Made by a program: the position numbers and the translations under genes. The notes below the pieces were generated by a model. The model had not been told where the DNA came from, did no database searches, and saw only the letters and a program-made list of their open reading frames with translations. This document shows, one piece after another, positions 2,328-61,889 of a stretch of DNA of 64,000 nucleotides. How positions within the stretch are numbered: position 1 is the stretch's first letter; every line of letters begins with the position of its first letter. Source of the stretch: Thermoplasmatales archaeon (GTDB lineage: Archaea; Thermoplasmatota; E2; DHVEG-1); NCBI GenBank assembly GCA_041305025.1, contig JBFYMG010000053.1, positions 308-64,307 on the forward strand, read 5' to 3'.

Positions 2328-3785
2328 ATGAAGACGGCTGAAGAGTATAAGAAGAATCTTAAACAGATGAGACCAAATATTTACAAGTTTGGTGAGCTAA
2401 TAAAAGATGTAACAAAGCATCCAGCAACAAGAAGAACCGTTGAAGGTCATGCACAGATATTTACAGCGAGTTTGAAGACAGAATATCAGGATATTCTCAC
2501 CACAAAATCCAGTTTGACTGGTGAGCGAATATCAAGATATCTCTCAATTCTTGGCAGTGCAGAGGACATGTACGCCAACGTTCGTATGAAGCGCCTGATG
2601 TTCAATCTCACAGGCACATGTACGGGAGGCAGATGTGCAGGTTTCAATGCCCTTAATGCCATGTGGGCAACAACTTACGACATAGACAAAGATTTAGGAA
2701 CGGACTATCACAAGCGACTACAAAATTGGCTGGAGGATGCACAGAAACAAGACATTACTCTCTCGGGTGCATTGACTGATCCCAAAGGAGATCGTTCAAA
2801 ACCACCTTCACTTCAGAGCGATCCTGATATGAGTTTGCGTATTGTAGAAGAAAAAAAAGATGGAATCGTAGTTCGTGGTGCAAAGGTGATGATATGCGGT
2901 GTTGCTGCAGCAAATGAGCTATTTGTAATGCCTGGCACGGGATATAAAGAGTCAGATAAGGATTACGCCGTTTCTTTTGTAATTCCGCGCGATATAGACA
3001 ACCTTACAATAATTGAGGCAAGAAGACCAAGCGATACAAGAGAGCAAGAAGAGGGTTTTGATATTCCCGTTGATATTGGTGGTATAACCCAAGCCTATAT
3101 CTTGTTTGAAGATGTTTTTATTCCAAAAGAACGAGTTTTTATGTGCAAAGAACACGCTTATACTACCCAAGCAGTTATGAATTTCATAGCACCTTATCGA
3201 GCTGCAATTGGTGGATGCGTCGCTGGCCAAGGCGATGTTATGATTGGTGCATCAGCTCTCATGGCACGTGCAAATGGTCTAAATGAAAAAACTTTTAAAG
3301 ATAAGATAAACCAGATGATTATAAACAATGAAACCACATTTGGAATGGGTATTGCTGCCAGTGCTCTTGGGCATAAACACCCATCGGGCGTGTGGATTCC
3401 AAATCTCCTGCTTTCCAACGTAAATAAGGTGCATGTTGCAACCTTACCCTATGAAACCAAAAGGTTAACTCAGGACATAACAGGAGGAATTGCTGAGACG
3501 GGATGCATTCCTTCATGCAAAGATCTTAACGATCCGAAATACGGAAAAATGTTGCAGAAATATCTAAAGGCAAACTGTAGTGGTGAATCAAGAGCAAAGA
3601 TTGCACGTCTTGTTGAGTGGCTTACAATTGGCGCGGGTGTTCCTGGCTGTATGCATGGTGGTGGTTCTCCGGATGGCGCAAAACTAATTATCAACATTAA
3701 TACCGACATTAACCGCTACATAGAACTTGCAAAAAGGCTGGCCGATATCAAAGAGGATATACAAGTGGAGCCTAAGAAAAAATAA
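2328..3785 (+). CDS. abfD: 4-hydroxybutyryl-CoA dehydratase / vinylacetyl-CoA isomerase family protein
   Basis: 485 aa. It is collinear with AbfD-type proteins: TCTGGRCAGFN (CX3C cluster ligands), LTDPKGDRSKPPS...LRIVEEKKDGIVVRGAK, GGCVAG. Confidence 0.85.
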   Translation: MKTAEEYKKNLKQMRPNIYKFGELIKDVTKHPATRRTVEGHAQIFTASLKTEYQDILTTKSSLTGERISRYLSILGSAEDMYANVRMKRLMFNLTGTCTGGRCAGFNALNAMWATTYDIDKDLGTDYHKRLQNWLEDAQKQDITLSGALTDPKGDRSKPPSLQSDPDMSLRIVEEKKDGIVVRGAKVMICGVAAANELFVMPGTGYKESDKDYAVSFVIPRDIDNLTIIEARRPSDTREQEEGFDIPVDIGGITQAYILFEDVFIPKERVFMCKEHAYTTQAVMNFIAPYRAAIGGCVAGQGDVMIGASALMARANGLNEKTFKDKINQMIINNETTFGMGIAASALGHKHPSGVWIPNLLLSNVNKVHVATLPYETKRLTQDITGGIAETGCIPSCKDLNDPKYGKMLQKYLKANCSGESRAKIARLVEWLTIGAGVPGCMHGGGSPDGAKLIININTDINRYIELAKRLADIKEDIQVEPKKK

Positions 3786-4602: not shown

Positions 4603-5985
4603 ATGTTGGATGCAAGACTCGCTGTTGAAATAATATTCTTAGTCTCGTGCACCGTCACAATCTATCTTATCCTTAGGAGGCCTTATTTGTACATAAGGCT
4701 GGGCATACGCAAGATAAAGATGGATACCTATTTTCTTGGCGCATTGCTTGGACCGGTTTTGATTGTAATTTTTGGTATCTTGAACTATTCACAGCTCCTA
4801 GGGGGATTTGAGGGAAAAGGCGGCCTCAATCCATTCGGTGTTCTGGTTCTTTTTCTATCGATGGTTTTTATGAGCATATTTCTTGATATCACCGGATTCT
4901 TTGAATATTGTGCTCGTCTTGCGTTGAAATTTGCCGGTACCGATGGTAGGAAACTCTATTTCTCATTATATATCGTCGTTTCAATACTTACGATATTTAC
5001 GTCTAATGATATCATTATACTAACGTTTACTCCTTTCATTTATTACTTCTCAAAAAATGCAGGAATAGACCCAAAGCCATATCTTATAGCCGAGTTCTTT
5101 GCAGCAAATACATGGAGCATGATGCTTTACATAGGCAATCCAACAAACATCTTGCTTGCATCAGCATTCGACCTACGTTTTGATCAATACTTCAAATGGA
5201 TGTTTTTGCCTGCAATCGTTGCTGGATTTACTAGCATGGCGCTGTTGTATGTTCTCTTCAGAAGTAAGATAAACCAGCCAATTAAACACCAAAAAACCAT
5301 AAAACCTTTAGAAGCAATCACCGATAAACCAAGCGCCATTCTAGGGCTTTTAATTCTTGGTGGGTGTATCGTTGCATTAGCGATTGCTCCTTATTTCGGA
5401 ATTGAAATGTGGCTCGTTTCACTTGGGTTTGCACTTGCCCTTCTTGCGATTTTGGCGCTACGCGATTCGTTCGTCTCTTTAATCAGAAAACATATTGAAA
5501 AGAAGCATTTTACTATCGCGCCTACTCTGAAAAAGATGCCGGTGGGCATTATTCCTTTCGTTTTGGCATTGTTTGTAACAGTTGAAGCTCTAAGAATCTA
5601 CGGAATAACAGAAGATATCGGCATATTTTTCAAAAATATCTGCGGCAGTTCAAATACTGCATATGTTTTTGTCTACGGAACATCCTCTGCCTTTTCTGCC
5701 AACATACTGAACAATATCCCTATGACAGTTGCCTATGTCCCTATCACTAGCGCCGTTGCACAGCCACATATTTTACCTTCAGTTCTTGCAACAGCAGTTG
5801 GCTCAAATCTTGGTGCAAATATTACGCCAATTGGTGCATTGGCAGGAATCATGTGGATGAGCATACTACGTGATAAAAATGTGAAGATATCATTCAAAGA
5901 ATTTGTAAAATGCGGGTTAATAGTTACACCAATAACTCTTGTAGCATGTTTGGGTGTGCTTGCACTCGAATTCATGATCTTTTGA
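4603..5985 (+). CDS. ArsB/NhaD-superfamily anion or ion permease
   Basis: 460 aa polytopic membrane protein. The IGNPTNILLASAF motif is typical of ArsB/citrate-transporter-like permeases. The true start may be the internal Met at residue 40. Confidence 0.75.
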   Translation: MLDARLAVEIIFLVSCTVTIYLILRRPYLYIRLGIRKIKMDTYFLGALLGPVLIVIFGILNYSQLLGGFEGKGGLNPFGVLVLFLSMVFMSIFLDITGFFEYCARLALKFAGTDGRKLYFSLYIVVSILTIFTSNDIIILTFTPFIYYFSKNAGIDPKPYLIAEFFAANTWSMMLYIGNPTNILLASAFDLRFDQYFKWMFLPAIVAGFTSMALLYVLFRSKINQPIKHQKTIKPLEAITDKPSAILGLLILGGCIVALAIAPYFGIEMWLVSLGFALALLAILALRDSFVSLIRKHIEKKHFTIAPTLKKMPVGIIPFVLALFVTVEALRIYGITEDIGIFFKNICGSSNTAYVFVYGTSSAFSANILNNIPMTVAYVPITSAVAQPHILPSVLATAVGSNLGANITPIGALAGIMWMSILRDKNVKISFKEFVKCGLIVTPITLVACLGVLALEFMIF

Positions 5986-7596: not shown

Positions 7597-7630
7597 TCCT
7601 GACTTTGCATTTCATATATTTTACTGACAG

Positions 7631-8791
7631 ATGAATATAAATACAAAAAAGAATATCCCAAAAAAAGTGACCGTCAAAGAAGTAGAAGCAAAATCAATTT
7701 TACGTAAAAACAACAAAATTGACTCCTGGTTTATCTCTTATTATGGTATGAATTTATACCGGGGATGCACCCATGATTGCATCTACTGTGATGGGCGATC
7801 AGAAGGATACTATGTCGATGGAGAATTCGGCAAAGATGTTGTAGTAAAAATTAATGCCATCGATGTTTTACGTCGAGAGTTGGATTCGAAACGTAAACGA
7901 ACTCCATTTAAGAAAAGCTATATGCTGGTTGGTGGTGGCGTTGGTGATAGCTATCAACCCATCGAAAAAAAGTATGCGCTCACTCGAAAGACTCTTCAAT
8001 TGCTTTATGAAAATAATTGGCCGGTTCACCTTTTAACAAAATCAACACTTGTCAAAAGAGATATTGATATTCTGAAAAAGATTAATGAAAAAAATAGAGT
8101 AATTGTAAGTTTTAGTTTTTCATCAGCCGATGATAAGACAAGTGCGATATTTGAGCCGGGTGTTCCTTCACCTACTGAACGATTAAAAACTATTGAATTT
8201 TTTAAAGGCGAGGGATTCTCTTGTGGCATGTTTTTACTTCCAGTCATTCCATTTATCACAGATAAACCAAACTTGCTTGAGGAAACGATTCGACTGGCAA
8301 AAGATGCTGGTGTGGACTTCATCATCTTTGGCGGCATGACATTAAAAGATGGCAAACAGAAAGAATACTTTTTGAAAACGCTTAAAAAAACCTATCCAGA
8401 ACTGATTACCGAGTACAGTCATATATACCGAGGAGACAAATGGGGACAAGCAATCGGCGAATACTATGAGTCAATTAATCAAACATTTAATGCAATTGCA
8501 AAGAAATACAAAATACCCAAACGCATACCGCCTGCCTTATACAGAAACATTTTAAGTGAAAACGACTTAGTAATTGTTATTTTAGAACAGATCGACTATC
8601 TCTTAAAATTGGAAGAAAAAAAATCACCATATGGCTATGCCGCTTATTCTATTTCAAAATTAAATGAACCGCTTTCGTCTATAAAAAACGAATTGCAACA
8701 GATTAAAGGAGTTGGCCAAGTAACTGAACGAATCATCCTGGAAATTCTCAATACGGGAAGTTCTTCATACTATGAAAAATTATTAATTTGA
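7631..8791 (+). CDS. Radical SAM protein (SplB/COG1533-like) with C-terminal helix-hairpin-helix
   Basis: 386 aa. CX3CX2C motif in YRGCTHDCIYCDG. The C-terminal IKGVGQVTERIILEIL resembles an HhH motif. Confidence 0.8.
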   Translation: MNINTKKNIPKKVTVKEVEAKSILRKNNKIDSWFISYYGMNLYRGCTHDCIYCDGRSEGYYVDGEFGKDVVVKINAIDVLRRELDSKRKRTPFKKSYMLVGGGVGDSYQPIEKKYALTRKTLQLLYENNWPVHLLTKSTLVKRDIDILKKINEKNRVIVSFSFSSADDKTSAIFEPGVPSPTERLKTIEFFKGEGFSCGMFLLPVIPFITDKPNLLEETIRLAKDAGVDFIIFGGMTLKDGKQKEYFLKTLKKTYPELITEYSHIYRGDKWGQAIGEYYESINQTFNAIAKKYKIPKRIPPALYRNILSENDLVIVILEQIDYLLKLEEKKSPYGYAAYSISKLNEPLSSIKNELQQIKGVGQVTERIILEILNTGSSSYYEKLLI

Positions 8792-26212: not shown

Positions 26213-29200
26213 TTAGGTTATTTCATCAATCATTGGGAGTATTTGTTTGTCTTTGAAGCCATGCTGTTCTATTGCGCCAGATGGACATGCGCTTACGCAT
26301 GTTCCGCAACCTTGACACAACCCCTCATTAATTTTTGCATGAACAGTGCGTTTGCCATTTTTTTCTTCAGTTACAGAATCTATAGCTTTGTATGGACAAA
26401 CAGAAATACAAGTCTTACAACCGCTACACAAATCCTCGTTCACAAATGCAATGTTTGGCTCTGCTGCAAGTTTTGGTTGAGATAGAATCGTTGCCGCACG
26501 CGCAGCAGCGGCTTGAGCCTGATAGATAGATTCACCGATAAATTTTGGCGTATGACAATTTCCAGCTAAAAACACACCACGGGTCGAAAAATCAACTGGT
26601 CTCAACTTAACATGTGCTTCAAGGAAAAATCCATCATCATTTAAAGGAACTTTGAGCATCTTTGCTAATGAATCGTTATTCTTATCTGGTTGCAAACCTG
26701 AAGAAAGAACAAGATAATCAGCCGGTATCTTCAATGTCTCCGCAAGCATCGGCTCAAATGTTTTGACAATCAATCCATTCTTTAAATCGATTTCAGGTTT
26801 TTTCTCAGGATCATATTGTATAAACATGACTCCTTTCTCACGAGCATCTTTGTAGAATTTTTCTCTGAAACCATAAGTCATCAAATCACGATATAGAATG
26901 AACACTTCGGCGTGCGGATTTAATTCTTTGATCTTGATTGCATTTTTCACTGCTTGCATACAACATATTCTGCTGCAATAATGCCGCTCATTATCACGAG
27001 ATTCAACGCACTGCATCATTACAAAAGTCTGGCCATCGCAAATATCGTCAGGTCGACTTTCGCTAAGCTTTTTTTCCAGTTCGGATTGTGTTATTACTCT
27101 TGAATCCTTACCATAGTGATATGAATTCGGTTTGTACTCCTCTGCACCAACTGTCACCAAGACCACACCATGATTAAATTTAACCATATCGTTTGGTGTT
27201 TTAATCTCTGAATCGTAGCTCCCAACATAACCGCTGAGCGTTTTCAAAGTTGAGTTCGTGTAAACTTTTATCAAATCGTGTTTTTGAACTTTATCTACAG
27301 TTTCCTTGAGCAACCGACGTACATCTATGCCCTCGACCGTATGATATATTTTATTCAAATAACCACCAAGAACTGGCTCCTTTTCAACTAAAGCTGTTTC
27401 ATAACCCTGATCGGCAAGCGACAATGCTGCAGTCATCCCAGCGATTCCTCCACCGATGACCAAAGCCTTTTGAGTAACTGGAATTTCTGATTCAAATATT
27501 GGTTGTAAAAATCTCGTCTTAGCAACAGTCATTGCAATCAATTTTTTTGCTTTCTCTGTTGCCTCTTTTGGAATATCCATATGAACCCAAGAACACTGTT
27601 CGCGGATATTGGTCATCTCAAGAAGATGTTGATTCAGGCCGGCTTCACGAAGACTCTTCTTAAACAATGGCTCATGGGTGCGCGGTGTACATGCGGCCAC
27701 AATAACTCTATTCAACTTGTGCGTCTTGATCGCATCTGCTATCTTCTTCTGCGTATCCTCGGAGCAAGTATAGATATTGGCCTCTGCAAAAACAACATCA
27801 TCAAGAGAGCCAGCAAACTTGACAAGATCGGGAACGTCCAGATATCCGCCAATGTTGATACCGCAATGGCAAATAAAGACACCAATGCGTGGTTTTTCTT
27901 TAGAAATATCTCTTTCTGAAGGATATTTCTTTTCTTTGACCAAAGTACCTCTGACATCTCTAAGTAGTGCAGCAGCATTTGCGGCAGCAGCTGATGCTTG
28001 CATCACACTTTCAGGAATTGCCTGTGGTTCAAGGAAAGAGCCTGCGACAAAAATCCCAGGTTTTAGAACAACCGGGTCATCAGGAAGTGTTCGAATGAAA
28101 CCAAATTCATTTGCCTCAAAACCAAGATGCTCGATCAATTCATTACGCCGATCCTCAGCAACGCAAAGCCCAACAGACAAAACAACAAGATCAAAAGTTT
28201 CATCTTTAAATTCACCGGAATCATCCTCATATTTTATTGTAAGATCCTTCGTCTTTGGGTCCTCTGCAATCTCAGAGATACGGGATCTCACATACCGCAA
28301 ACCGTGTTGCTTTTTTGCTCGATCAATATACTTGTCAAAATCCTTGCCGTAGGATCGAATGTCTATGTAGAATACTGTCGGTTCAATATCAGCACTGTGC
28401 TCCTTTGCAATCACTGCTTCCTTGGCCGTATACATGCAACACATGGACGAACAATATTCATGATCAACGGATTTGTCGCGGGAACCCACACAGTGAATCC
28501 ACGCAATTTTTTTCGGATGTTTTTTATCACTCAATCTTAAAATCTTTCCCTGAAAAGGGCCAGACGCAGATAATATTCGCTCAAATTCAATACTTGTAAC
28601 CACATTTGCATATCGTTTGTAACCAAACTCGGGTTTCACAACAGGGTCGAATGGTTTAGAGCCAGTCGCGACAATGACTGCACCAACAGACAAATTCAAA
28701 GATTCTGGTTTTTCTTCATGGTTAATTGCACCAGATTTACACTCTTTCACACACTTCATGCAATCGACGCAACCACGATGCTTACCATCGCCTTCCTTAT
28801 CAATCGCATACGCATTGGGAATTGCCTGAGGATAGGGTTTGTAAATTGCCTTTCTTTTAACCAAACCATACTCAAATGCATTTGGAAGCGAAATCGGACA
28901 AACGGCTTCACATGACCCACATGATGTACATTTATTCAAATCAACATACCGCGGTTTTTTCAAAACATTAACTGTAAAATTCCCTGGTTTTCCCTCAATT
29001 TTTTGTATTTCAGCATTTGTCAATAACTCAATATTAGGATGACGTGCACAATCAACAAGTTTAGGAGACAAAATACACATAGAGCAGTCGTTCGTCGGAA
29101 AAGTTTTATCGAGCTGGGCCATCATGCCGCCAATTGCTGGTGTCTTTTCCAAAAGATAAACCTTGAACCCCATGTCAGCAAGATCTAGGGCAGCCTGTAC

Positions 29201-29260
29201 TCCAGCAATCCCACCGCCGACAACGGCAACCGCTCCAATCTTGTCAGATTTATGTGTCAT
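26213..29260 (-). CDS. Double HdrA-like flavoprotein (two HdrA-type FAD modules in one 1015-aa chain)
   Basis: Module 1: [27 protein letters not shown]...[15 protein letters not shown]. An internal HdrA N-domain motif, [15 protein letters not shown], lies at about aa 455. Module 2: [28 protein letters not shown]. Several CX2CX2CX3CP ferredoxin motifs. Confidence 0.85.
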   Translation of the reverse strand: [1015 protein letters not shown]

Positions 29261-29266
29261 ATCTCT

Positions 29267-29932
29267 CTACTCAGTTTTCCGGCTATATCCTTCTTTTATA
29301 GCAATATTTTTAATCGCATTCATCAACTTGGGAATCTCCACGCCTTGAGGACATTGCGTAAAACATCGATGATGCATGGAACATATTTCAACAAACTTAT
29401 TAGAAAACACATTTTCCTTCATTCCAAGTAGTGCATTCTTAATTACTTTCCTTGGCGAATACAAAGAGTCAAGTTCTCGCTCAGGGCAACCTGCAGTGCA
29501 TGTCCCGCAAGAAAAACACTCATACAAATCCTTTCCAGATTCATCTTTTATGAGTTTGTATTTGAAATCAAGATCAAGAGTTTTCTTAGCTTTCTTCCCG
29601 GTCACGTCCTCAGTCTGCTCTTCAAACATCCGCGCATTACGAACCGCATTCATGACTTCTTTGACATTAACCTGTTGCGGACATTTCTCAAGACAACGGA
29701 AATGAGCACTGCAAATCCAGATAAACTCGCTGGATAAAACTTCCTCCTTTAATCCTAGCAATGCCATTCGAATAATCACGCGAGGATTCCACTCAGGTTT
29801 TACATCCATTTCTGGGCAACGAGCAGTGCATGACCCGCATGCAAAACATTTCAAGATACCTTCTCCACCGTCTTCCTTGGCAATTTGAAATTTGAAATTT
29901 GAATCAATTTTGCGGGAGTCAATCACATCCAT
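29267..29932 (-). CDS. Tandem-duplicated HdrC-like iron-sulfur protein
   Basis: 221 aa with two homologous halves. Each half has CxxCGxCTAxCPE followed by ICSxHxRCxxxCPQ. Confidence 0.7.
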   Translation of the reverse strand: MDVIDSRKIDSNFKFQIAKEDGGEGILKCFACGSCTARCPEMDVKPEWNPRVIIRMALLGLKEEVLSSEFIWICSAHFRCLEKCPQQVNVKEVMNAVRNARMFEEQTEDVTGKKAKKTLDLDFKYKLIKDESGKDLYECFSCGTCTAGCPERELDSLYSPRKVIKNALLGMKENVFSNKFVEICSMHHRCFTQCPQGVEIPKLMNAIKNIAIKEGYSRKTE

Positions 29933-29933
29933 G

Positions 29934-31052
29934 CTACTTTTCTCCTACCTCCAAGAACTCATCTTCTCGATACACAATCATTGGAATCTTTTCCTTTGGA
30001 TCTTTTCCAGGCTGGTAATTGAATTCTTTCTGTGCGTTCTCTGCAGCGGGGATAAACACATCCATCAACGGAATATTATTTGGGCATGCCTGTTCACATA
30101 ACCCACACTCCACACAAGAAAGAATCATATGATTCATCCTTCCAATATGGAACAAAATAGAATCACTTGGCATCTTTAACAGACCCTTGCTCTCTGCTTT
30201 TTTCAGGAATTTATACGCCTCTGCATCAAATACAGATGATTCGAACAGACATTCTTTACAATAGCAGATTGGACATGCCTTCATGCAATTATGACAATTC
30301 ACGCACTTGTCAAAAAATGTGGCGAGAGCATCGATACCTTTAATGGAACTCTTTTCCTTAACAAATGCTGTATTATGTTTTGCCTTGTTTTCATGAATCG
30401 CCTTTACGGCCTTGTCACGATCATGCTCTTTAGCCTCATTCAATTTTAAACCTTCGATTAGTTTTTTACCAGTTTCCGTGTGAGCTTCAATTAAAATTTC
30501 CTTTTCAGCATCCATTCCATATATCCCAATGATAAAATCAGCATTGCTTGGAATCGGATCTTTACACACACGACATGCCGATCTCAGATACTTTTCAGCA
30601 TCATCTGTCTTCTTTATAAATGCATCAATCACAAACTTAGCAGGTTTCTTCTTCTCAGGAAAATCAGCATAGATATTAACTGGGAAAGTTCCAAGACAAT
30701 CAACACCAATAATCACGATATTTTCGGGATTTGCTTGATTCAATTTTACCAATTCAGTAAATGCACGAATCTGACACGGCCGCATGACAACACCGATTGG
30801 TTTATTTGCAGCCTGAAACTTTGTAATCCTGGACACTATTGACGCCGTAGATATAGGCAGGACAGGAGCGAAAATATCTGAGTTTAACTGATCAGGATTT
30901 GAAATCAATACTGGAAATGCTATTTTCTTTGTAGGAGTTTCCTGCGGAACCAACAATGCATGAATCTTTTTTGATTCAAGCAATTCCTTAAGCATTGCAT
31001 TGCAAGATTCAGCTACATCCCCGCCTTTAACCTTCAAGATTTTATGTGACAT
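29934..31052 (-). CDS. FrhB/FdhB-family-like iron-sulfur (flavo)protein
   Basis: 372 aa. GVVMRPCQIRAFTELVK and IVIIGVDCLGT resemble the FrhB/FdhB fold. C-terminal CVNCHNCMKACPICYCKEC and CVECGLCEQACP clusters. Confidence 0.55.
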   Translation of the reverse strand: MSHKILKVKGGDVAESCNAMLKELLESKKIHALLVPQETPTKKIAFPVLISNPDQLNSDIFAPVLPISTASIVSRITKFQAANKPIGVVMRPCQIRAFTELVKLNQANPENIVIIGVDCLGTFPVNIYADFPEKKKPAKFVIDAFIKKTDDAEKYLRSACRVCKDPIPSNADFIIGIYGMDAEKEILIEAHTETGKKLIEGLKLNEAKEHDRDKAVKAIHENKAKHNTAFVKEKSSIKGIDALATFFDKCVNCHNCMKACPICYCKECLFESSVFDAEAYKFLKKAESKGLLKMPSDSILFHIGRMNHMILSCVECGLCEQACPNNIPLMDVFIPAAENAQKEFNYQPGKDPKEKIPMIVYREDEFLEVGEK

Positions 31053-31062
31053 AATTCATCTC

Positions 31063-31521
31063 CTAAATATTCCACTGTTTTGCAATGGGACTAGGGCCCA
31101 ACTTTCTTATCGCTTCAGTCATCTCTTTCATCGTTTCGGCAAATTTCTGTCCTTCTGATGCAGAAATCCATCGGACCCAAACACGCTCTGGATCCAGGCC
31201 CAACGTATCCAAAATATTCTTCAGCAGAACCATTCTTCTTCGTGCTTTGTAATTTCCATCAATATAATGACAATCACCAGGATGACAGCCACCGACAAAA
31301 ACACCATCGGCACCATCAAGCAATGCACGTAGAATGTACACGGAATCAACAGACCCTGAGCACATAACTCGGATAATGCGGACATTGGCCGGGTACTGGA
31401 TTCTACTCGTGCCGGCTAAATCTGCACCCGCGTAACTACACCAGTTACAGAGAAAACCTACAATCTTTGGTTCAAACTTTTCTTTTTTATGTTCCTTATG
31501 CGCTTTTACTTCTTCTGCCAT
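31063..31521 (-). CDS. mvhD: MvhD/FlpD-type hydrogenase iron-sulfur subunit
   Basis: 152 aa. The characteristic region is [40 protein letters not shown]. Confidence 0.85.
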
Positions 31522-31526
31522 CTATC

Positions 31527-34500
31527 TCACTCCAAACAAGCATCAACCATCGACAAAATCTGTCGTTTCGTAAACGTATTCTGCTGTGAAACACCACTCG
31601 GACACAGTGCAGAACACGCACCACAACCCTGACATAGGATTTCATTTATAACAACAATTTTCTTTTCTTCATCAAAGGTTATCGCATCATATGGACATAT
31701 CTCAAGACATAGTTTGCAACCGGCACATTTGCTTGATATAACGCGGGCAATATTTCCCTTAGTTTCCAAATATTCTTTTGAAAGAATAGTTGCCGCTCGT
31801 GCACCAGTTGCCTTTGCTTGTAGTATAGACTCTTCAATAAAGCGCGGTGAGTGCGCAAGACCACACAAGAATATGCCGTCGGCCGAAAAATCAATTGGAC
31901 GCAACTTAACATGCGCCTCAGAATAAAATTTATCCTCATTCAAAGGAACTTTCAACTGTTGTGCCAGAACGATGTTGTCCTGTGGAATAATGCCTGTACT
32001 CAAAACCAGTTTATCTGGATGGAGATTAAGTTCTCTGCCAAGTATTTGTTCAATTGTTTTCACATTTATCTTGCCGTTATCAATTTTAACATCTGGCTCT
32101 TTTTCATCATCGTATCTTACAAAGAGTATTCCTTTTTTGCGTGCTTTTTTATAGAGTGTGTCTTCTCGGAAACCGTAAGTTCGTATATCGCGGTACAAAA
32201 CATACACGGCAGCATCTGGATTAATTTCCTTTAGTTTCAATGCATTCTTCAAAGCCTGTGAACAGCAAATTCGGCTACAATAGGGACGGTCATCATTTCT
32301 TGATCCAACGCACTGGATCATGACAATTTCTTTGAGCTTCTTAAGATAAGGCTTATCCTCGAATAGATCTTTTTCGAACTCAGTCTGCGTAATAATATCT
32401 TCATTTTTAGAATAATGGTATTCTTTTGGTTTGTATGGCAATCCGCCGGAAGCAACTACAACAACACCATGCTCTATTTCTGCAGGTACGGCCTTATCCT
32501 TTGATTTCAACTTGGTTTTAAAATTACCAACATAACCTGAAACATTATCGATTGTTGTACTCTTGAACACTTTTATTTTTGTATGATTTTGGATCTCTTC
32601 GATTGTCGCTTTCAATAATTCCTGAGGTTTTTCTTCGGCAATTCCAAGGTAAATATCTTTTAGATGGCCGCCAAGCTCTGACTCCTTTTCAACGAGAAAT
32701 ACATCATATCCTTGATCTGCAATGGAAAGCGCAGATTGCATGCCTGCAATTCCGCCGCCGATAACCAAGGCACTATGAACGACTGGAATCTGCAAATGCT
32801 GAACCGAATACAAGTCAGCTGCTTTTGACACTGCCATTTTCACCGCATCGATTGCTTTATCATTTGCACCCTTTGGATCAGCCCTATGCACCCATGAATT
32901 CTGATCGCGAAGGTTCGCCATTTCAAACAAGTGGGGATTTAAACCCGCCTGGCGTAATGTATCTTGGAACAATGGTTCATGGGTACGTGGTGTACACGAT
33001 GCAATAACCACACGATTCAAATTAAACTCTTTGATTTTCTCCTTTATTTTTTCTTGAGAATCTTGCGAGCATGTAAAGATACTGTCATCAGCATACACAA
33101 CATTCGGGAGTTTTTTTGCGTATTCAGCTACTTTTTTAACATCAACAACACCAGCGATGTTAATGCCGCAATGACAGACGAATACGCCGACACGCGGGAA
33201 CTCTTGTTTAACATCACGCTCTTCAGGATACACTTTTTCAACGATTTCTGTTCCACGCATTTCAGCAATAGCTTTGGCTGCCTCAGCCGCGGCGGCAGAT
33301 GCTTGCGTAACGCTTTCGGGTATATCCTTTGGTTCTGTCACAGTACCAGATGCATAGATGCCCTCTCGCGAAGTAAGAATTGGAGAAAATGGATCGGTTT
33401 CAACAAAGCCGTATTCATTTAGATTTACGTCTAGAACTTTACCTAAATCACCTAAAGCATTACATGGTTGCAATCCGACAGACAAAACAACCATGTCGTA
33501 ATTTTCATTCTTTAAAGTTCCATCATCATCGACGTAGCGGACAACAAGATTTTTCGTATCACGATCCTGCTCCACACCAGGAATACGACATCGACGATAA
33601 ACCACACCATATTCATCTTTTGCCCGCTCGAAATACTTATCAAAATCTTTGCCAAACGAACGCATGTCCATAAAGTAAACATGGGTCTCTACACCAGGTT
33701 CATGCTCTTTGGCAATCACTGCCTCTTTTGTAGCATACATGCAACAAACTGACGAGCAATATTTTTTATCACAGCTTTCATCGCGAGAACCGACACACTG
33801 CAACCACGCAATTTTTTTCGGTGCTTTTCCATCAGAAATGCGTTGGATATGACCTTTATATGGTCCAGATGCCGAAAGCATTCGCTCAAATTCAATACTA
33901 GTCAAAACATTGGGATATACATGATATCCGTAACTATCTGCTCTTGGTGGTGCGTACTCAGCAAAACCCGGAGACACAATCACTGCACCCACATCAATTG
34001 TTTCTGTTGATTCTTTCATTTGATGATCAACGGCATTGCGTCCGCAGTACAACACACACTGCAGACATTCACAACATCCGGCGCAGTTCAGACATCGTTG
34101 CGCTTCGCGGATCATCTGATCTTTGCTGAACCCTTGATCAACCTCAACAAATGATTTGATTCGTTCTTCTGGAGAAAGCAAGGAAGAGCACTCACGCGAT
34201 AGCACAAAACGTGGTGCTTCTTTTGGTATTTTTGCTTTATTTTTTTCCTTCTTTTCTCGGCCTATTTTCAAATCTTCATTATTCAAATATCGATCAATAG
34301 AAATTGCAGCGTCATGACCGGCAGCAATCGCTTCTACTGCCGATGCTGGTCCCGTCACCGCATCGCCACCGGAAAAGACTCCTTCCAAAGACGTTTGAAG
34401 TGTCAATGGATCTACATCGATTAGTTCTGATTTATTTAATTTAATTTCATTTTGTTCCAAAGGCGCGGCATCAACTTCTTGCCCAATTGAAAAAATAACA

Positions 34501-36044
34501 TAATCACATTCAATGTCAAATTCAGAACCTTTAACCACAATTGGTTTTCTACGGCCAGATGCATCCGGTTCCCCGAGTTCCATCTTTGCGCACTGCAAAC
34601 ACGTGTCTTTTTCATTCTTATGCAGCTTTGTCGGATTCGTCAAAAAGTTAAACTTAATACCTTCTTCCTGCGCTTGCTCGATCTCCTCTCTATTTGCAGG
34701 CATCTCCTTTAAAGACCGTCGGTAAACAACGGTTATTTCACCGCCAAGTCGTCTTGCAGTACGAGCGGAATCCATTGCAACATTTCCACCGCCAACAACC
34801 ACAATTTTTTTACCTTTAAAATAATCTGGAGCAATCATGTCTCTGTTGAGTTGTTCCAGGTATTCAACGCCCTGTAGGATATGAGAATCCAAACCCTGGC
34901 AACATTCTACACCAGACGCACGGCTCTTATGCGCACCAATAGCAACAAAAAATGCTTTGAATCCTTGACTTTTCAGATCTTTCAAATTAAAATCTTTTCC
35001 AAATTTCTGATTGTTTTTTATTTCTATATTACCATCCGCACATAACAAATCTATCTCTTTACGTAAATATTCTCGCGGGAGTCTATAATCTGGAACACCG
35101 TAGCGAAGCATACCGCCGTTGTACTTTTCCTCTTCAAAAATAGTCGGCTTATAACCTAATCGCGCAAGATCATATGCTGCTGTAAGTCCAGCTGGACCGG
35201 CACCAATGACTGCAATCTTTTGTTCTTTACCACGTTTTAAATCTACTTCGACGATATTTTTGGCCTTAGTTTTCTCATCACGCTTTTTACGATAGTCAGC
35301 CAGCTCCTCCGGGTGTTCATAGATATAATCTGCGATAAATCGTCTGATCTTGCAAATGGAAACTGATTCTTCGATATCTTTACGATTGCACTCACCTTCA
35401 CAAGGATGATAACAAATTCTACCAAGCGATCCTGGTAAAGGGATGGTATCTCGTATAAGTTCGTAAGCTTCTGCAAATTTTTCTTGGGATGCCAATGCGA
35501 TAAAGCCCTGCACATTCAAACCTGCAGGACATGCAAGTTTACATGGCGATACATCTTCGTTTTTAGCAATTGCAAAAACATTTGGGATGGCTTGCGGAAA
35601 TGGCTGGTAAATAGCCTTATGAACTGCAAGTCCTTCGTCAAAATCAGATGCCATTTTAACCGGGCAGTGCTCAACACAATCACCACATCCGTTACATTTC
35701 TCAAGATCGACAAATCTAGGATGCTTCGTAACTGTAACATGAAAATCTCCTACCGCTCCAGCAATACCAGTAACTTCAGCATTAGTAATGATTCTGATAT
35801 TCTCATGACGGCCAGTGTAGACTAGTTTAGGGGCAAGAATGCACATGGCGCAGTCGTTCGTCGGAAAAGTTTTATCCAGTTGCGTCATCGTTCCGCCGAT
35901 GGAAAGCCCGCGGTCGACAATGTAGACCTTAAATCCAGCATCGGCAAGATCGAGCGATGATTGAATACCTGCAATACCGCCACCTATGACAAGCACTGAA
36001 CCGTGTTTTGCATTAGTAATCGAAGTGCCTCTCTTATTTGTCAT
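31527..36044 (-). CDS. HdrL-like giant fusion: HdrA module + inserted GltD/NfnB-type NAD(P)H module + second HdrA module
   Basis: 1505 aa. The N-terminus carries [25 protein letters not shown]...[15 protein letters not shown]. The insert carries [14 protein letters not shown]...[34 protein letters not shown]...[16 protein letters not shown] and [14 protein letters not shown]. Next come an internal [15 protein letters not shown] and [28 protein letters not shown]. Confidence 0.85.
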   Translation of the reverse strand: [1505 protein letters not shown]

Positions 36045-39446: not shown

Positions 39447-39460
39447 TTAACACGTGTTAA
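39447..39460. promoter_or_regulatory. Candidate operator: perfect 14-bp palindrome at the hdr operon promoter
   Basis: TTAACACGTGTTAA lies between an AT-rich TATA-like tract (39463-39477) and the hdrC ATG (39429). That is about where the transcription start should fall. Confidence 0.45.
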
Positions 39461-57836: not shown

Positions 57837-58460
57837 CTAGCTTCGCGGATATTTGGATTTTAAAGGCGGACATGAAATTTCTTGTATCATATCAACGAGG
57901 TATACCATCTTTCCTGCATCACATATGTCAAAACATTCTCTGCAGGACGAACACATATCGGATGCTCCTGGAACTAATGTGACATTGCGATTGACACCAC
58001 GGCCTACGAAACATACCGCATTCTTCTTTTTAATTTCTGCACAATATCTTACACACAGACCGCAAAGGGTGCAAGGTGATTCCGGATTTTCCAATTGTTT
58101 GAAACGGGATTCTGTGATACCATATTGTTTTGCGATGTCAACGTGCGAGCCGCTTGGAGATACAGATAGCAACAACTCGGCAAGCATTTTTCGAATTTTC
58201 TCCGCCTTTTCGGCCTTCGTATTAACGACCAATCCTTCTTCTACAGAATAACAACATGATGCCACAAGTTTTTTCCTATTATTTTTTTCAACTTCCACCA
58301 TGCAAAATCGGCATGCGCCATAGGGTTCGAGTTTGTCATCGTGACAGAGATTCGGAATTGTAATACCTGCCTTTTTTGCTGCCTGGATGATTGTCATTCC
58401 TTCGTCTGCTTGAACCCGCTTACCATCAATCATTAAGGATACACTCTTCATTGTTTTCAC
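57837..58460 (-). CDS. NuoG-N-terminal-like [2Fe-2S]/[4Fe-4S] ferredoxin subunit
   Basis: 207 aa. IDGKRVQADEGMTIIQAAKKAGITIPNLCHDDKLEPYGACRFCMVEV is the typical 2Fe-2S N-terminus of NuoG/HndD/FdhA-type subunits. There is a 4-nt overlap with the NuoF-like gene. Confidence 0.75.
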   Translation of the reverse strand: MKTMKSVSLMIDGKRVQADEGMTIIQAAKKAGITIPNLCHDDKLEPYGACRFCMVEVEKNNRKKLVASCCYSVEEGLVVNTKAEKAEKIRKMLAELLLSVSPSGSHVDIAKQYGITESRFKQLENPESPCTLCGLCVRYCAEIKKKNAVCFVGRGVNRNVTLVPGASDMCSSCRECFDICDAGKMVYLVDMIQEISCPPLKSKYPRS

Positions 58461-60358
58461 CTCTTCGCATTTACTTTTTCAGTAGGGCAATTATTGATTC
58501 CACCAGATGTCTTTAAAACTGCGCTGAATTTACATACATCAAAACAAGTTCCACATTTTATGCACTTTTCGGCATCAATCTTGTGAATGCTCTTTTTCTG
58601 CCCAGATATTGCATCTGTGGGGCAATTCTTAAGACAAAGGCCGCAACCTTTACATTTCTCTGGATCAATGTGATACTGAATTAATCCTTTGCACACCTTT
58701 GCAGGGCATTCACCACGAATATGCGCTTCATATTCATCCCGGAAATATTTTAGTGTGCTAAGAATTGGATTCGGAGCGGTTTGACCTAGGGCACACAATG
58801 ATGCAGTCTGGACAACCTCAGAGAGCTCTTCCAAAAGTTCGATATCTTCTTCCATGGCCCTTCCCGCTGTAATGTCATTCATAATTCGGACCATCTGACG
58901 CAGTCCTTCCCGGCAAGGTATACATTTTCCGCAGGATTCCTCTGACAGGAAATTAACAAAATATCTGGCAATATCTACCATGCAGGTATCTTCATCCATG
59001 ACGATCATCCCGCCAGATCCCATCATGGATCCAACATTGTACAATTCATCAAAATCAACGGCGAGATCAAGATATTTCTCAGGGATGCATCCACCTGACG
59101 GACCACCTGTTTGAACCGCTTTGAGGCGTTTCCCGTTTGGTATACCACCACCGATGTCATAGATGATCTCTCTGAGGGTAACACCCATGGGGACTTCGAC
59201 AAGGCCGGTGTTGTTTACGTTTCCAACAAGTGAAAAAATCTTTGTCCCTGTGCTATTAGGAGTACCCATACTGGCGAACCATTGTGCACCATTGTTGATG
59301 ATGAAGGGTACGTTTGCCCATGTTTCAACGTTATTCAGACATGTTGGTTTATTCCATACACCACTTACTGCAGTATGAACATATTTCGGGCGTGGTTCAC
59401 CAACGCGTCCTTCGATGGCCGACATAAGAGCACTGGATTCTCCGGAGACAAATGCTCCAGCACCTCGATGGACTTTAATCGTAAAATCAAAACCAGAACC
59501 AAGAATGTTTTTCCCAAGAAGGCCATATTCTTCTGCTTGTTTAATCGCCTGTTCTGTGTTTTCCACAGCAAGTGGATATTCTTGACGAACATAGATAAAT
59601 CCTTCATGAGCACCCATTGTATAACCGCCAATGATGAGACCTTCAATGACACTGTGAGGGTTCCCTTCCATTAATGCTCTATCCATAAATGCCCCGGGGT
59701 CTCCTTCGTCGCAGTTCACAATCACATATTTTGATTCACCTGGCGCATTCTTCGTTGTTTCCCATTTACGTCCTGTGGCAAAGCCTCCACCGCCACGTCC
59801 TCGGAGGTTTGATTTTTTAATTTCATTAAGAATCTGATCCGGTTTCATTGTGCAGAGTGCCTTTGCCAACGCATTGTATCCGCCAACAGCGATATAGTCA
59901 TTGATGTTTTTAGGGTCAATTTTTGTATTATTACCCATAACAATTCTGCGTTGATGTTTATAGAATGGGATGTCTGATTCGTTGATGATTTTTTTATTAG
60001 TTTTTGGATCGGTGTATAATAATCTATCAATGATTTTTCCTTGAAGTATCGTTTGATTTACAATATCAGAGACATCAGCGGGTTTCACTTGGATATAGCA
60101 AATACCTTCAGGATAGATGACGACTATGGTTCCTTTTTCACAGAACCCTGGGCAGCCGGTTTCACGGACTTCCACCATTTTATGTAGATTTTTTTTCTCC
60201 AGTTCCTTCTTCATTGTTTCGATTACTTTCGGAGCACCAAGAGCAATACATCCGGTTCCTGAGCAGATGGATATGAAGCGTTTTGTTTTTGTGTCTCGTT
60301 GTTTTTGAAGAGTTTGCCGGCATTGTTCTAAATCCTTTGGTTGAGAAAATTTTGTCAT
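58457..60358 (-). CDS. NuoF-like NAD(P)H-binding FMN iron-sulfur flavoprotein (HydB/HndC-type)
   Basis: An N-terminal thioredoxin-like 2Fe-2S domain, the FMN site RGRGGGGFATGRKWE, a SLBB region and C-terminal 2x[4Fe-4S] (CKGCGLCLKNCP, CIKCGTCFDVC). The start is probably Met20 (60358), preceded by AGGTAGGTGA. Confidence 0.9.
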   Translation of the reverse strand: MTKFSQPKDLEQCRQTLQKQRDTKTKRFISICSGTGCIALGAPKVIETMKKELEKKNLHKMVEVRETGCPGFCEKGTIVVIYPEGICYIQVKPADVSDIVNQTILQGKIIDRLLYTDPKTNKKIINESDIPFYKHQRRIVMGNNTKIDPKNINDYIAVGGYNALAKALCTMKPDQILNEIKKSNLRGRGGGGFATGRKWETTKNAPGESKYVIVNCDEGDPGAFMDRALMEGNPHSVIEGLIIGGYTMGAHEGFIYVRQEYPLAVENTEQAIKQAEEYGLLGKNILGSGFDFTIKVHRGAGAFVSGESSALMSAIEGRVGEPRPKYVHTAVSGVWNKPTCLNNVETWANVPFIINNGAQWFASMGTPNSTGTKIFSLVGNVNNTGLVEVPMGVTLREIIYDIGGGIPNGKRLKAVQTGGPSGGCIPEKYLDLAVDFDELYNVGSMMGSGGMIVMDEDTCMVDIARYFVNFLSEESCGKCIPCREGLRQMVRIMNDITAGRAMEEDIELLEELSEVVQTASLCALGQTAPNPILSTLKYFRDEYEAHIRGECPAKVCKGLIQYHIDPEKCKGCGLCLKNCPTDAISGQKKSIHKIDAEKCIKCGTCFDVCKFSAVLKTSGGINNCPTEKVNAKR

Positions 60359-60365
60359 GCTTTGG

Positions 60366-61181
60366 TCACCTACCTTTTTGTTGTTGGAGTGTTGGTCTTT
60401 GAGCAACAGGTGCAAGTCTTTGTTGTTCTTCAGTCATTGCTAATTCTCCAGTACGATAGCTTGAGAGAATATTGGAAACTTGTGAAGGTGTTAATTTTCC
60501 ATGATATTCATTATCGATCATCATTACGGGCCCTAAAGCACAACAACCAAGACAATTTACACTTTCAAGGGTGAACTTCATATCTGGAGTTGTTTCTCCA
60601 GATTTAATTCCTAAGAACTGTTCTGCGGCATCCAAAATTTTTGGGCCACTTCTGACGTGGCAAGCCGTACCCAAGCATACTCTCACGAAATGTTCTCCTC
60701 TTGGTTCCAAGCTAAAGGCCTTGTAAAACGTGGCGATATGAAGAATCTGAGACATGGGTATATCCAATCTTTCTGAAACCCATAACAGGGCAGACTTTGG
60801 AAGCCAATGGTTTTTCTCCTGGATTTTTAAAAGAATCTGAATTAAAGCACTTTTATTACCGTTGTATTCATCTATGATTTCGTCAACATCGCGTAGCTCT
60901 TGTACCATCTCTTTTATTGATTCTTCTCTCTGTTTTATCCGTTTTAACTCTTTCAGATGGTGTATCGCTTCTTTTTCAAGTTTTTTAAGTTCAACGTTCA
61001 ATGGAGGACGATCAAGGCCTAACGCATAATATTCAGAAAGAATTTCCAAACCACGTAGTAAAATATCTGTTTTACTCAATTCAGAGGTTTTCTGTAAAGT
61101 ATATAAAGCCTTTTTCTGTTCTTCATTTAATCTTACGCCAACAAAGTGGGATTTGGTTTTTTCTTTTTTCATGGAAATCAT
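60366..61181 (-). CDS. NuoE-like [2Fe-2S] subunit with N-terminal ribbon-helix-helix domain and coiled-coil linker
   Basis: 271 aa. The first 50 aa (HFVGVRLNEEQKKALYTLQKTSELSKTDILLRGLEIL) fit a CopG/Arc RHH. The C-terminal part (LIQILLKIQEKNHWLP...ATFYKAFSLEPRGEHFVRVCLGTACHVRSG...CLGCCALGP) is a NuoE/HydC fold. Confidence 0.8.
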   Translation of the reverse strand: MISMKKEKTKSHFVGVRLNEEQKKALYTLQKTSELSKTDILLRGLEILSEYYALGLDRPPLNVELKKLEKEAIHHLKELKRIKQREESIKEMVQELRDVDEIIDEYNGNKSALIQILLKIQEKNHWLPKSALLWVSERLDIPMSQILHIATFYKAFSLEPRGEHFVRVCLGTACHVRSGPKILDAAEQFLGIKSGETTPDMKFTLESVNCLGCCALGPVMMIDNEYHGKLTPSQVSNILSSYRTGELAMTEEQQRLAPVAQRPTLQQQKGR

Positions 61182-61183
61182 CC

Positions 61184-61204
61184 CGTGTTTAACGGTTTAA
61201 CACG
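61184..61204. promoter_or_regulatory. Imperfect 21-bp inverted repeat at the nuoE-like start / divergent promoter region
   Basis: CGTGTTTAACGGTTTAACACG is self-complementary at 18 of 21 positions. It contains the octamer TTAACACG, which is also present in the hdr operator palindrome. It lies 3 nt upstream of the annotated ATG. Confidence 0.4.
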
Positions 61205-61361
61205 ATTTTGTACCCAAAAATTACTAATTCATTAAAAGGATATGTGCGAAATTTTAACCATAATACATACTTTTTAATCATTATCAAGTATTTTCAATAA
61301 CTATTCATCATTTTGGTTACAAAAGAATATATATCCTAATTTCATCTGGGGGAACGATTGT

Positions 61362-61889
61362 ATGGAACGACTGAGTGTATCTTTAAACGAAAAATCACTG
61401 CCAATTATCCAGAAATATTTAGTAAAATACGATACGTCACAAGCTGACATAATCCGTAGAGCACTTGTTTGGATGGACATCATGGAAGAGGCAACTGGAA
61501 AAACTTCTTTAGAAAATATTTTGAAATATGTAGATTACTTAGCAGACAACGAACATTTAATAATCGATATTGCGCACTGGAAAGCAATATTTATTGAGAT
61601 TGGTGAGGGTTCTAAAAATTTTTGGAATGAGGTTTACAAGATAGGAGATTCCCATAGAAAAGAATATTTAGACAGGGGCATTAGAGATGTAAAACAAATT
61701 TTGAAGCATATTGAAAAAACAAACTGGTATAGATTAAAAGAGGATTCTAAAAATAGTTTTACTTTGGTATTGGCAACATTGGAATCAGAAAAATTTATTA
61801 AAACATTTTTTGAAGGATTTTTTAACAAATATCCTCAAAAGGTAGAGATAACAGAAGAGTATATGAAAATCAGAATCAACGTTCGTTGA
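61362..61889 (+). CDS. Hypothetical protein with N-terminal RHH (CopG-like) domain
   Basis: 175 aa. MERLSVSLNEKSLPIIQKYLVKYDTSQADIIRRALVWM fits the strand-helix-helix pattern. The rest is unrecognised. It is divergent from the nuoE-like operon. Confidence 0.55.
   Translation: MERLSVSLNEKSLPIIQKYLVKYDTSQADIIRRALVWMDIMEEATGKTSLENILKYVDYLADNEHLIIDIAHWKAIFIEIGEGSKNFWNEVYKIGDSHRKEYLDRGIRDVKQILKHIEKTNWYRLKEDSKNSFTLVLATLESEKFIKTFFEGFFNKYPQKVEITEEYMKIRINVR

Follow-up and report, generated by a model that had tools for sequence, protein, structure and literature searches.

A predicted ribbon-helix-helix module on a NuoE-like [2Fe-2S] subunit and a conserved two-heptamer candidate operator at its own promoter in a Thermoplasmatales archaeon

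Proteins of the NuoE/HydC/BfuC type have so far been treated as pure electron-transfer parts of larger enzymes. The locus described here, which lies near the end of a 64,000-nt stretch of a Thermoplasmatales archaeon genome (contig JBFYMG010000053.1; "the window" below means this whole stretch), raises the question of whether such a subunit can also regulate transcription. Its nuoE-like gene (open reading frame 60366..61181, minus strand) heads a set of three nuoE/F/G-like genes, and its product joins in one chain an N-terminal module that resembles a DNA-binding domain of the ribbon-helix-helix (RHH) type, a helical linker and a complete NuoE domain. This three-part layout had been proposed in a preliminary description of the DNA, and it is real and conserved among homologues. 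We give a probability of roughly 0.7 to the reading that the fused NuoE is a DNA-binding autoregulator of its own cassette; the DNA binding, its stoichiometry and the sign of the regulation are what we infer. The subfamily, with its own predicted DNA-binding module and operator, reaches across no fewer than five phyla of anaerobic organisms from both domains of life. On this reading its genes would form a portable, self-regulating NADH-module cassette, in which the idea that part of an Fe-S enzyme doubles as a transcription factor could be tested in a simple setting.

The element that is the strongest evidence for this reading is found immediately upstream of the gene. Two heptamers make up its core; they follow an 8-bp register and read GTTAAAC-C-GTTAAAC along the coding (minus) strand at 61187..61201, with the consensus GTWWAAC-N-GTWWAAC; written out for a DNA duplex, the candidate operator is CGTGTTAAACCGTTAAACACG. 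Together with CGT/ACG flanks the core makes up the 21-nt inverted repeat CGTGTTTAACGGTTTAACACG at 61184..61204. This repeat was originally reported as self-complementary at 18 of 21 positions, and it is: CGTGTTTAACGGTTTAACACG has three mismatches with its own reverse complement, none of 100 shuffles matched it, the 10-nt arms are 90% complementary and the 21-mer is unique in the window. The gap to the first ATG (61181) is 2 nt rather than the 3 nt first given. Comparison across loci, however, does not bear out the 21-nt inverted repeat as the conserved element; the tandem heptamers are conserved instead, and the CACG flanks vary freely.

Among the loci with the RHH-fused form, 26 of 29 carry the operator with at most one mismatch (25 of them exactly), 2–21 nt (mode 14) before the start. 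Bases G1, T2, A5, A6 and C7 of each box are nearly invariant, A or T stands at positions 3 and 4, the flanks are free, and the spacer base is random (C in 7 cases, A in 6, T in 8 and G in 5). Box 2 occurs as GTTAAAC, GTTTAAC or GTAAAAC, so that the pair reads as a direct repeat in some genomes and as an inverted repeat in others.

The operator is also highly specific for the fused genes. At up to one mismatch it is unique in the window, where the sole site with two mismatches (34639) is inside a coding region. In 783 kb of sequence from 80 genome loci there are nine occurrences at up to one mismatch, eight of them at fused genes and one elsewhere, and not one at the approximately 68 nuoE genes in those loci that belong to this subfamily but are unfused. 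In 291 kb of metagenome loci, 12 of the 13 fused genes have it in front of them, and it occurs at a single further place. By our own arithmetic, which takes base composition as uniform, about 0.1 exact matches would be expected in the whole genome set. Only two fused loci have no site at all, and in both the predicted strand is altered at an otherwise invariant residue (R14G in L094 at 548.. and G12S in L007 at 2076..), as if the DNA-binding function and the site had been lost or changed together. This specific co-occurrence of the site with the fused form across phyla argues strongly for autoregulation, which the preliminary description had suggested. Moreover, since only the cassette is constant across the site-bearing loci and the fused NuoE is its only DNA-binding-like protein, we propose that this protein is the binder. 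An apparent covariation between strand residue 9 and the boxes (Lys9 with a GTAAAAC box 2 in eight of nine loci, His or Arg with GTT[TA]AAC) is given no weight here: it runs along clade lines, and residue 9 probably does not face the groove.

The position of the boxes relative to the promoters suggests what a bound protein would do. In the bacterial loci a sigma-70 promoter ends 3–10 nt before the first box; examples are TTGACA-18-TATAAT in L096 (12 of 12 consensus positions), TTGACA-17-TATTAT in L008 (11 of 12), TTGACA-17-TACAAT in L083 (11 of 12) and TTGAC-17-TAAAA in L004–L006 and L095. With the standard spacing between the -10 element and the start, the boxes should thus coincide with the transcription start in bacteria or fall shortly downstream of it. 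In the window, a promoter-like block TTCGCACATATCCTTTTAAT occupies 61231..61250 (minus strand) and includes a TATA-like CTTTTAAT (61231..61238); it lies upstream of the operator at a distance of 29 nt. In the archaeal loci a conserved CTTTTAAT lies 29–31 nt upstream of the boxes. An alignment of the intergenic regions of five archaeal relatives finds conserved only the boxes, the TTCGCAcATAgTCTTTTAAT block (61231..61250) and a block beside the divergent gene discussed below. The usual archaeal distance from TATA element to start would make 61231..61250 the promoter and put the boxes at the transcript start here as well. (A scan of the window for sigma-70 promoters and terminators gave background levels and is irrelevant for an archaeon.) A protein bound at the transcript start would block polymerase, and repression is thus the likely sign of the regulation. 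The operator/repressor pair would appear to work with both bacterial and archaeal promoters.

In the mechanism that we propose, the nuoE-like gene encodes a bifunctional protein, an RHH module carried on a 45-residue helix that is at the same time the [2Fe-2S] subunit of an NADH-oxidising flavoprotein complex. Two chains would pair through the RHH module, and probably also through the helical stalk, with the stalks leading to two NuoE domains; two such dimers would sit side by side, one per heptamer box, 8 bp apart. Occupied boxes would repress the cassette's own promoter, the bound protein blocking polymerase recruitment or promoter escape. This arrangement has precedents among RHH proteins. 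The MetJ met-box and omega-repressor heptad arrays consist of repeated 7–8-bp boxes in an 8-bp (MetJ) or 7-bp (omega) register, each bound by one RHH dimer that cooperates with its neighbours, and the boxes may be direct or inverted. Two dimers on boxes 8 bp apart would match the MetJ geometry and resemble that of omega. In contrast to those systems, the box sequence here is a different one, there are only two boxes, the protein has a large C-terminal enzyme domain, and there is no evidence for a co-repressor.

The extent of the N-terminal module depends on where translation starts. Counted from the first in-frame ATG (61181) the protein has 271 aa, and counted from the second (61172, MKKEKTK...) it has 268 aa; both numbering schemes are used below. 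Homologues begin at the second ATG, and an identical (100%) database protein has 268 aa. The first ATG (61179..61181) lies inside a Shine-Dalgarno-like GGGATGA (61178..61184, minus strand), and orthologues have a GGAGG/GGTGA-like sequence at the same position, 5–8 nt before their own start. Because homologues begin at 61172 and the first ATG falls within the Shine-Dalgarno-like sequence, translation likely starts at 61172 to give the 268-aa protein, and the earlier choice of the first ATG as the gene start was probably wrong.

In the 268-aa numbering the RHH-like module covers residues 1–53 (61014..61172, minus strand), with a strand KSHFVGVRL at 7–15, helix 1 at 17–29 and helix 2 at 34–50. 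Along the strand V11, V13 and L15 would face the core and alternate with the outward S8, F10, G12 and R14, an alternation that fits a ribbon. We examined the fold with the N-termini of 39 family members and with AlphaFold2 models of the monomer. The model of residues 1–98, built with 39 homologues (pLDDT 86), has an unstructured segment at 1–19 and helices at 20–33, 37–53 and 61–97 (271-aa numbering), and the full-length model agrees with it. Nearly all Foldseek matches of the module in the PDB are RHH proteins (TacA/TacA1, ParD/PrpA, KacA, CopA, CopG-DNA, ORF56, the PutA DNA-binding domain, ParD2, NikA and Arc), at E-values of 0.5 or worse; the CopG-DNA complex superposes with an rmsd of 1.1 Å over 38–39 residues (target TM 0.8) and ParD with 1.6 Å. 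Against BFVD, the top matches are CopG-domain, copy-control, NikA and Arc-type repressors, with probabilities up to 0.99 and E-values of 0.03–0.1. The PHROGs family phrog_876, annotated as "transcriptional repressor" with no fold stated, matches residues 5–52 of all 39 N-termini (best E 5.3e-7; 4.3e-4 for the window protein). The most recurrent Pfam families, RHH_1 (7 of 39, best E 0.011) and NikA-like (6 of 39, best E 0.0061), are both sub-threshold, and the window sequence itself matches none of the Pfam RHH families. PDB profile searches with residues 1–98 and 1–54 returned no RHH protein, only CpxP and coiled-coil noise. A recurrent NCBIfam EasF match on the stalk is spurious. The RHH assignment made at the outset is thus favoured by Foldseek, phrog_876 and the strand-helix-helix topology, and it stays below significance in the Pfam and PDB profiles; we regard the fold as likely but not proven.

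The CopG, ParD and TacA proteins that give the best structural matches are themselves autoregulators at their own promoters. Those proteins differ from the module in being stand-alone chains of 45–90 aa or partners of toxins, and their sequence similarity to it is below significance.

Behind the module comes a long charged helix (60888..61001, minus strand; residues 58–95) which runs on into the NuoE domain's first helix; in the full-length model this is a single helix from 58 to 102. The 45-residue helix is probably a coiled-coil or dimerisation stalk, as far as the model indicates. Some relatives in the same subfamily have a receiver domain (PF00072) in place of the strand and helix 1 (P0144, P0140, P0135, P0147 and P0148, from Desulfosarcina, Chitinispirillaceae and others; loci L017 from ~1800, L032 from ~2100 and L099 from ~1900), and they keep a homologous helix 2 ("LLKGLE-LG-YYSLGL") and the stalk before the NuoE domain. 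These relatives differ from the RHH-fused form not only in the exchanged domain; none of the receiver-fused loci has the two-heptamer operator upstream. A literature search on receiver-domain-NuoE fusions found nothing relevant. The N-terminus of this NuoE subfamily is therefore a site for regulatory modules, and the receiver-fused relatives caution that helix 2 and the stalk have a role beyond DNA binding.

Several points weigh against DNA binding by the module. No Pfam or PDB sequence profile is significant for RHH, all Foldseek E-values are above 0.01, and the strand is neither formed nor paired in the monomer models, as is expected for an RHH protein that is an obligate dimer but is no proof of one. 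The boxes are asymmetric: A is constant at position 5, but its symmetry mate at position 3 can be T or A. The receiver-fused NuoE proteins share helix 2 and the stalk, and this part may primarily be a structural or signalling linker. Finally, this genome encodes a second RHH-like protein, divergently from the cassette, that could share the intergenic region.

In a rival reading the extension would be structural only, a stalk serving dimerisation or assembly, or a docking helix for the complex, and would bind no DNA; the motif would be a promoter-proximal or 5′-leader element that serves another factor or acts in the RNA. The sub-threshold RHH profile matches are consistent with this, as are the continuity of the stalk with the NuoE domain in one modelled helix and the presence of helix 2 and the stalk in variants, receiver-fused and otherwise, whose N-termini have neither the strand nor helix 1. 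The motif, on the other hand, tracks only the forms with strand and helix 1, and is not found in the unfused or receiver-fused loci. It is kept in archaea and bacteria despite their unrelated promoters and translation signals and with no other shared protein, its box 2 variants and free spacer suit a protein that reads duplex DNA, and the phrog_876 matches are significant for all members. A role as an RNA hairpin would require a 7-bp stem with a 1-nt loop, which is impossible, and the direct-repeat versions could not pair at all. We therefore consider a purely structural extension unlikely and prefer autoregulation by the fused protein.

The C-terminal part of the protein is a full member of its family, and the claim of a complete NuoE/HydC domain holds. 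PF01257 covers residues 99–242 (271-aa numbering) over profile positions 1–144 of 145, with an E-value of 4e-52 and 176 bits against a cut-off of 24.8, and the cluster ligands C169-x4-C174-x35-C210-x3-C214 (same numbering) are invariant in 24 aligned sequences, those of the window protein and 23 homologues. Pfam places no domain on residues 1–75. In the PDB its best relatives, with E-values of 4e-44 at best, are HydC/BfuC-type subunits from bifurcating hydrogenases of the NiFe and FeFe kinds, NfnC, and the NuoE/NDUFV2 subunit of complex I; 7t2r_C, 8a6t_C, 7p5h_C and NfnC 9n5u_C have E-values between 1e-44 and 1e-37. Every one of these alignments begins only at query residues 89–101; these solved homologues are 154–189 aa long and leave the RHH module uncovered. 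The thioredoxin-like [2Fe-2S] domain is thus at 60456..60887 (minus strand) by PF01257, the PDB relatives and the four invariant Cys residues. It is followed by a low-confidence C-terminal tail and the stop codon (60366..60455, minus strand; pLDDT 52–61); the tail is restricted to close archaeal relatives.

The fusion itself is nearly universal among close homologues. The preliminary description had called for a survey, and in 117 of the 120 best homologues (database clusters) the protein is 226–268 aa long and its N-terminus is covered. Carriers are found in Thermoplasmatota/Thermoplasmata, Bathyarchaeia, Thermodesulfovibrionales (Nitrospirota), Dehalococcoidia, and Syntrophobacteraceae, Desulfobacterales and other "Deltaproteobacteria" (Desulfobacterota). 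The N-terminal consensus is K-x-K-S-x-F-V-G-x-R-x-T-E-E-Q-x3-L-S-x-L-Q-K-x-S-x-L-S-K-T-x-I-L-L-R-G-L-E-x-L-S-E-Y-Y-S-L-G-L-D, and a heptad-patterned charged helix follows it. The remaining three homologues (P0064, P0065 and P0079) are 178–179 aa long and are NCBI gene calls that begin at an internal Met. They could be taken to mean that translation also, or mainly, starts near Met92, giving a standard NuoE with a separate N-terminal peptide or none, which had been raised early on as something to check. But the contigs of these three (L167, L168 and L169, 3722..4000) have 93 open in-frame upstream codons that encode the same module, with the operator in front of them, and the frame is open and its amino acids conserved across phyla. 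At the position of Met92 only 62 of 95 homologues have Met and the others have I, L or V, the pattern that a heptad position would show, which makes a conserved internal start unlikely. We thus regard an internal start as very improbable, and the 178–179-aa entries read as truncated gene calls whose RHH and stalk regions were left unannotated. As a practical matter, annotation pipelines cut such genes at an internal Met, and the domain is lost.

The module was also sought outside this context. An exhaustive N-terminal profile search of representatives gave 34 clusters, several of them receiver-fused NuoE, and no convincing stand-alone protein on a long contig. A word-indexed search with the N-terminal profile returned six fragments only and is thus uninformative on stand-alone forms, and tblastn of the N-terminus against phage genomes found nothing.

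Downstream of the nuoE-like gene, the start of a NuoF/HydB/BfuB-like gene (58457..60358, minus strand; 633 aa) lies 7 nt past the nuoE-like stop, and its stop overlaps by 4 nt with a gene for a minimal NuoG/HydA/BfuA-like protein (57837..58460, minus strand; 207 aa). By Pfam, run on a 652-aa translation, the NuoF-like protein has 2Fe-2S_thioredx (41–121), Complex1_51K (FMN/NADH), SLBB, NADH_4Fe-4S and two Fer4 domains at 582–632. The 207-aa protein has a clear Fer2_4 domain (E 1e-19) and Cys-rich Fe-S motifs, and its 4Fe-4S domain matches are sub-threshold only (Fer4_7, E 0.004). The NuoF-like gene is the next gene after the nuoE-like gene in all related loci examined, and the third gene encodes a 200–208-aa protein in every related locus with called genes examined. 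The flanking genes differ completely between phyla and the cassette stays constant; it is a portable, self-contained three-gene unit. BfuB and BfuA have been defined by their domains (Schut et al., PMC9304861), BfuA by no fewer than one 2Fe-2S and one 4Fe-4S ferredoxin-type domain. By those definitions the domain set corresponds to a BfuC-BfuB core with a minimal BfuA; the NuoF-like protein fits BfuB in its FMN/NADH core, N-terminal [2Fe-2S] and C-terminal 2x[4Fe-4S] domains. The set differs from HydABC (Bfu) enzymes in its minimal 207-aa third subunit and in having no third-substrate module alongside, and no gene for a third-substrate or catalytic partner is present inside the cassette in any locus examined. 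We also note that in L169 a NikR-type regulator (RHH_1 + NikR_C, 7620..8030) lies ~550 nt downstream of the cassette's last gene; it is absent at the equivalent position of the window.

An enzyme that represses its own operon through an N-terminal RHH domain is not without precedent. PutA, the trifunctional proline utilisation A known from E. coli and Salmonella, is a redox enzyme whose N-terminal RHH lets it repress its own operon, the put genes; it alternates between a DNA-bound and an enzymatic role (PMC5293562). The negative autoregulation proposed here is PutA-like in this respect, and the PutA DNA-binding domain (2jxg) is among the Foldseek matches. The two differ in that PutA is a PRODH + P5CDH flavoenzyme, whereas here a [2Fe-2S] subunit from an NADH module of several subunits makes up the enzyme part; Pfam finds only PF01257 behind the N-terminal module and no PRODH or P5CDH domain, and the operators are unrelated. 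PutA, moreover, switches by associating with the membrane when its flavin is reduced, and the fused NuoE shows no evident membrane element. By analogy the nuoE-like fusion would work like PutA, yet it is not a member of that family. A literature search for RHH/CopG on NuoE found nothing relevant, and the Bfu family survey (PMC9304861) makes no mention of DNA-binding or regulatory domains on BfuC. The early remark that no characterised example was known thus holds for NuoE, although PutA had already established the principle. An NADH-module Fe-S subunit that carries an RHH and has an operator conserved across domains of life appears to be new; the enzyme-fused RHH autorepressor as such is known.

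What might control the occupancy of the operator is a further matter. Candidates are the balance between the free subunit and that assembled with its NuoF-like partner, cluster loading or redox state, and subunit movement driven by NAD(H). Movement of the BfuC subunit on NAD(H) binding has been reported in solved Bfu enzymes (PMC9304861). It is possible, though we hold the idea only tentatively, that occupancy depends on the redox or NAD(H) state of the enzyme and that the complex is its own sensor. Equally speculative is the corresponding route, in which a swing of the NuoE/BfuC domain is passed through the stalk, opens or closes the RHH dimer on the operator, and lets transcription of the cassette follow the NADH/ferredoxin state. 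Binding that depends on NAD(H) or redox state would give a direct link from the state of a possibly bifurcating enzyme to gene expression. In the receiver-fused sisters the signal would then run along the stalk the other way, from phosphorylation to control of the enzyme, and the stalk would serve this NuoE subfamily generally as a conduit for signals.

The divergent gene mentioned above (61362..61889, plus strand) encodes a 175-aa protein with no Pfam domain and an RHH-like N-terminus, MERLSVSLNEKSL...QADIIRRAL, whose residues 3–58 match the same phrog_876 region as the NuoE fusion (E 0.014). The gene is kept beside the cassette in close Thermoplasmatota relatives only (L081 at 5285..5821, and L167, L168 and L169 at 3014..3541), and the two transcription units share 180 bp of intergenic DNA. 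It could be argued from this proximity and the phrog_876 match that in this archaeon the neighbour binds the boxes and that the NuoE-fused domain is irrelevant to regulation. The two bacterial loci with called genes, however, both lack the neighbour, having asparaginase and aminotransferase genes upstream instead; L085 keeps the site exactly and L083 has a degenerate one with two mismatches. The neighbour is therefore not required to explain the boxes. A better candidate site is found by the neighbour's own start. A 14-nt inverted pair, TTTTGGTTACAAAA (61311..61324) and TTTTGTACCCAAAA (61206..61219), is 93% complementary with its members 91 nt apart, and the copy near the divergent gene is the block TTTTGTAACCGAAA that is conserved in the five archaeal intergenic regions. 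This TTTTGTAACCGAAA block may be the site for the 175-aa protein, and we think it improbable that the neighbour rather than the fused NuoE is the regulator that binds the boxes.

The preliminary description had also connected the fused protein with the hdr genes, as a redox sensor that could control the hdr operon jointly with the NADH module by way of a common operator sequence. The hdr cluster is real; it extends over ~26.2–39.4 kb of the window, with HdrC-, HdrB- and HdrA-like genes, MvhD and FrhB-like genes, and a perfect 14-bp palindrome TTAACACGTGTTAA is present at 39447..39460, between a TATA-like TATATATA run and the first hdr gene, 17 nt before that gene. The 8-mer TTAACACG is indeed shared between the palindrome and the nuoE site, but its count in the window is not above chance (3 against 1.72 expected; 23 of 100 shuffles reached 3). 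The coupling of the two operons was not borne out: the shared CACG bases belong to the unconserved flanks of the nuoE site, and the hdr palindrome lacks both the GTWWAAC boxes and the 8-bp register and is off the consensus even at two mismatches. Its half-sites are also arranged in reverse, with CACG central in the hdr palindrome and not distal as in the nuoE repeat. Joint control by the fused protein is thus highly improbable, and the palindrome is most likely the site of another regulator. Within the hdr cluster, the genes at 26213..36044 (minus strand) encode unusually large fused flavo-iron-sulfur proteins with MvhD and an FrhB-like protein beside them; a 1505-aa member combines GltD/Pyr_redox_2, HdrA-like and Fer4 domains, and a 1015-aa member has two HdrA-like FAD modules and Fer4.

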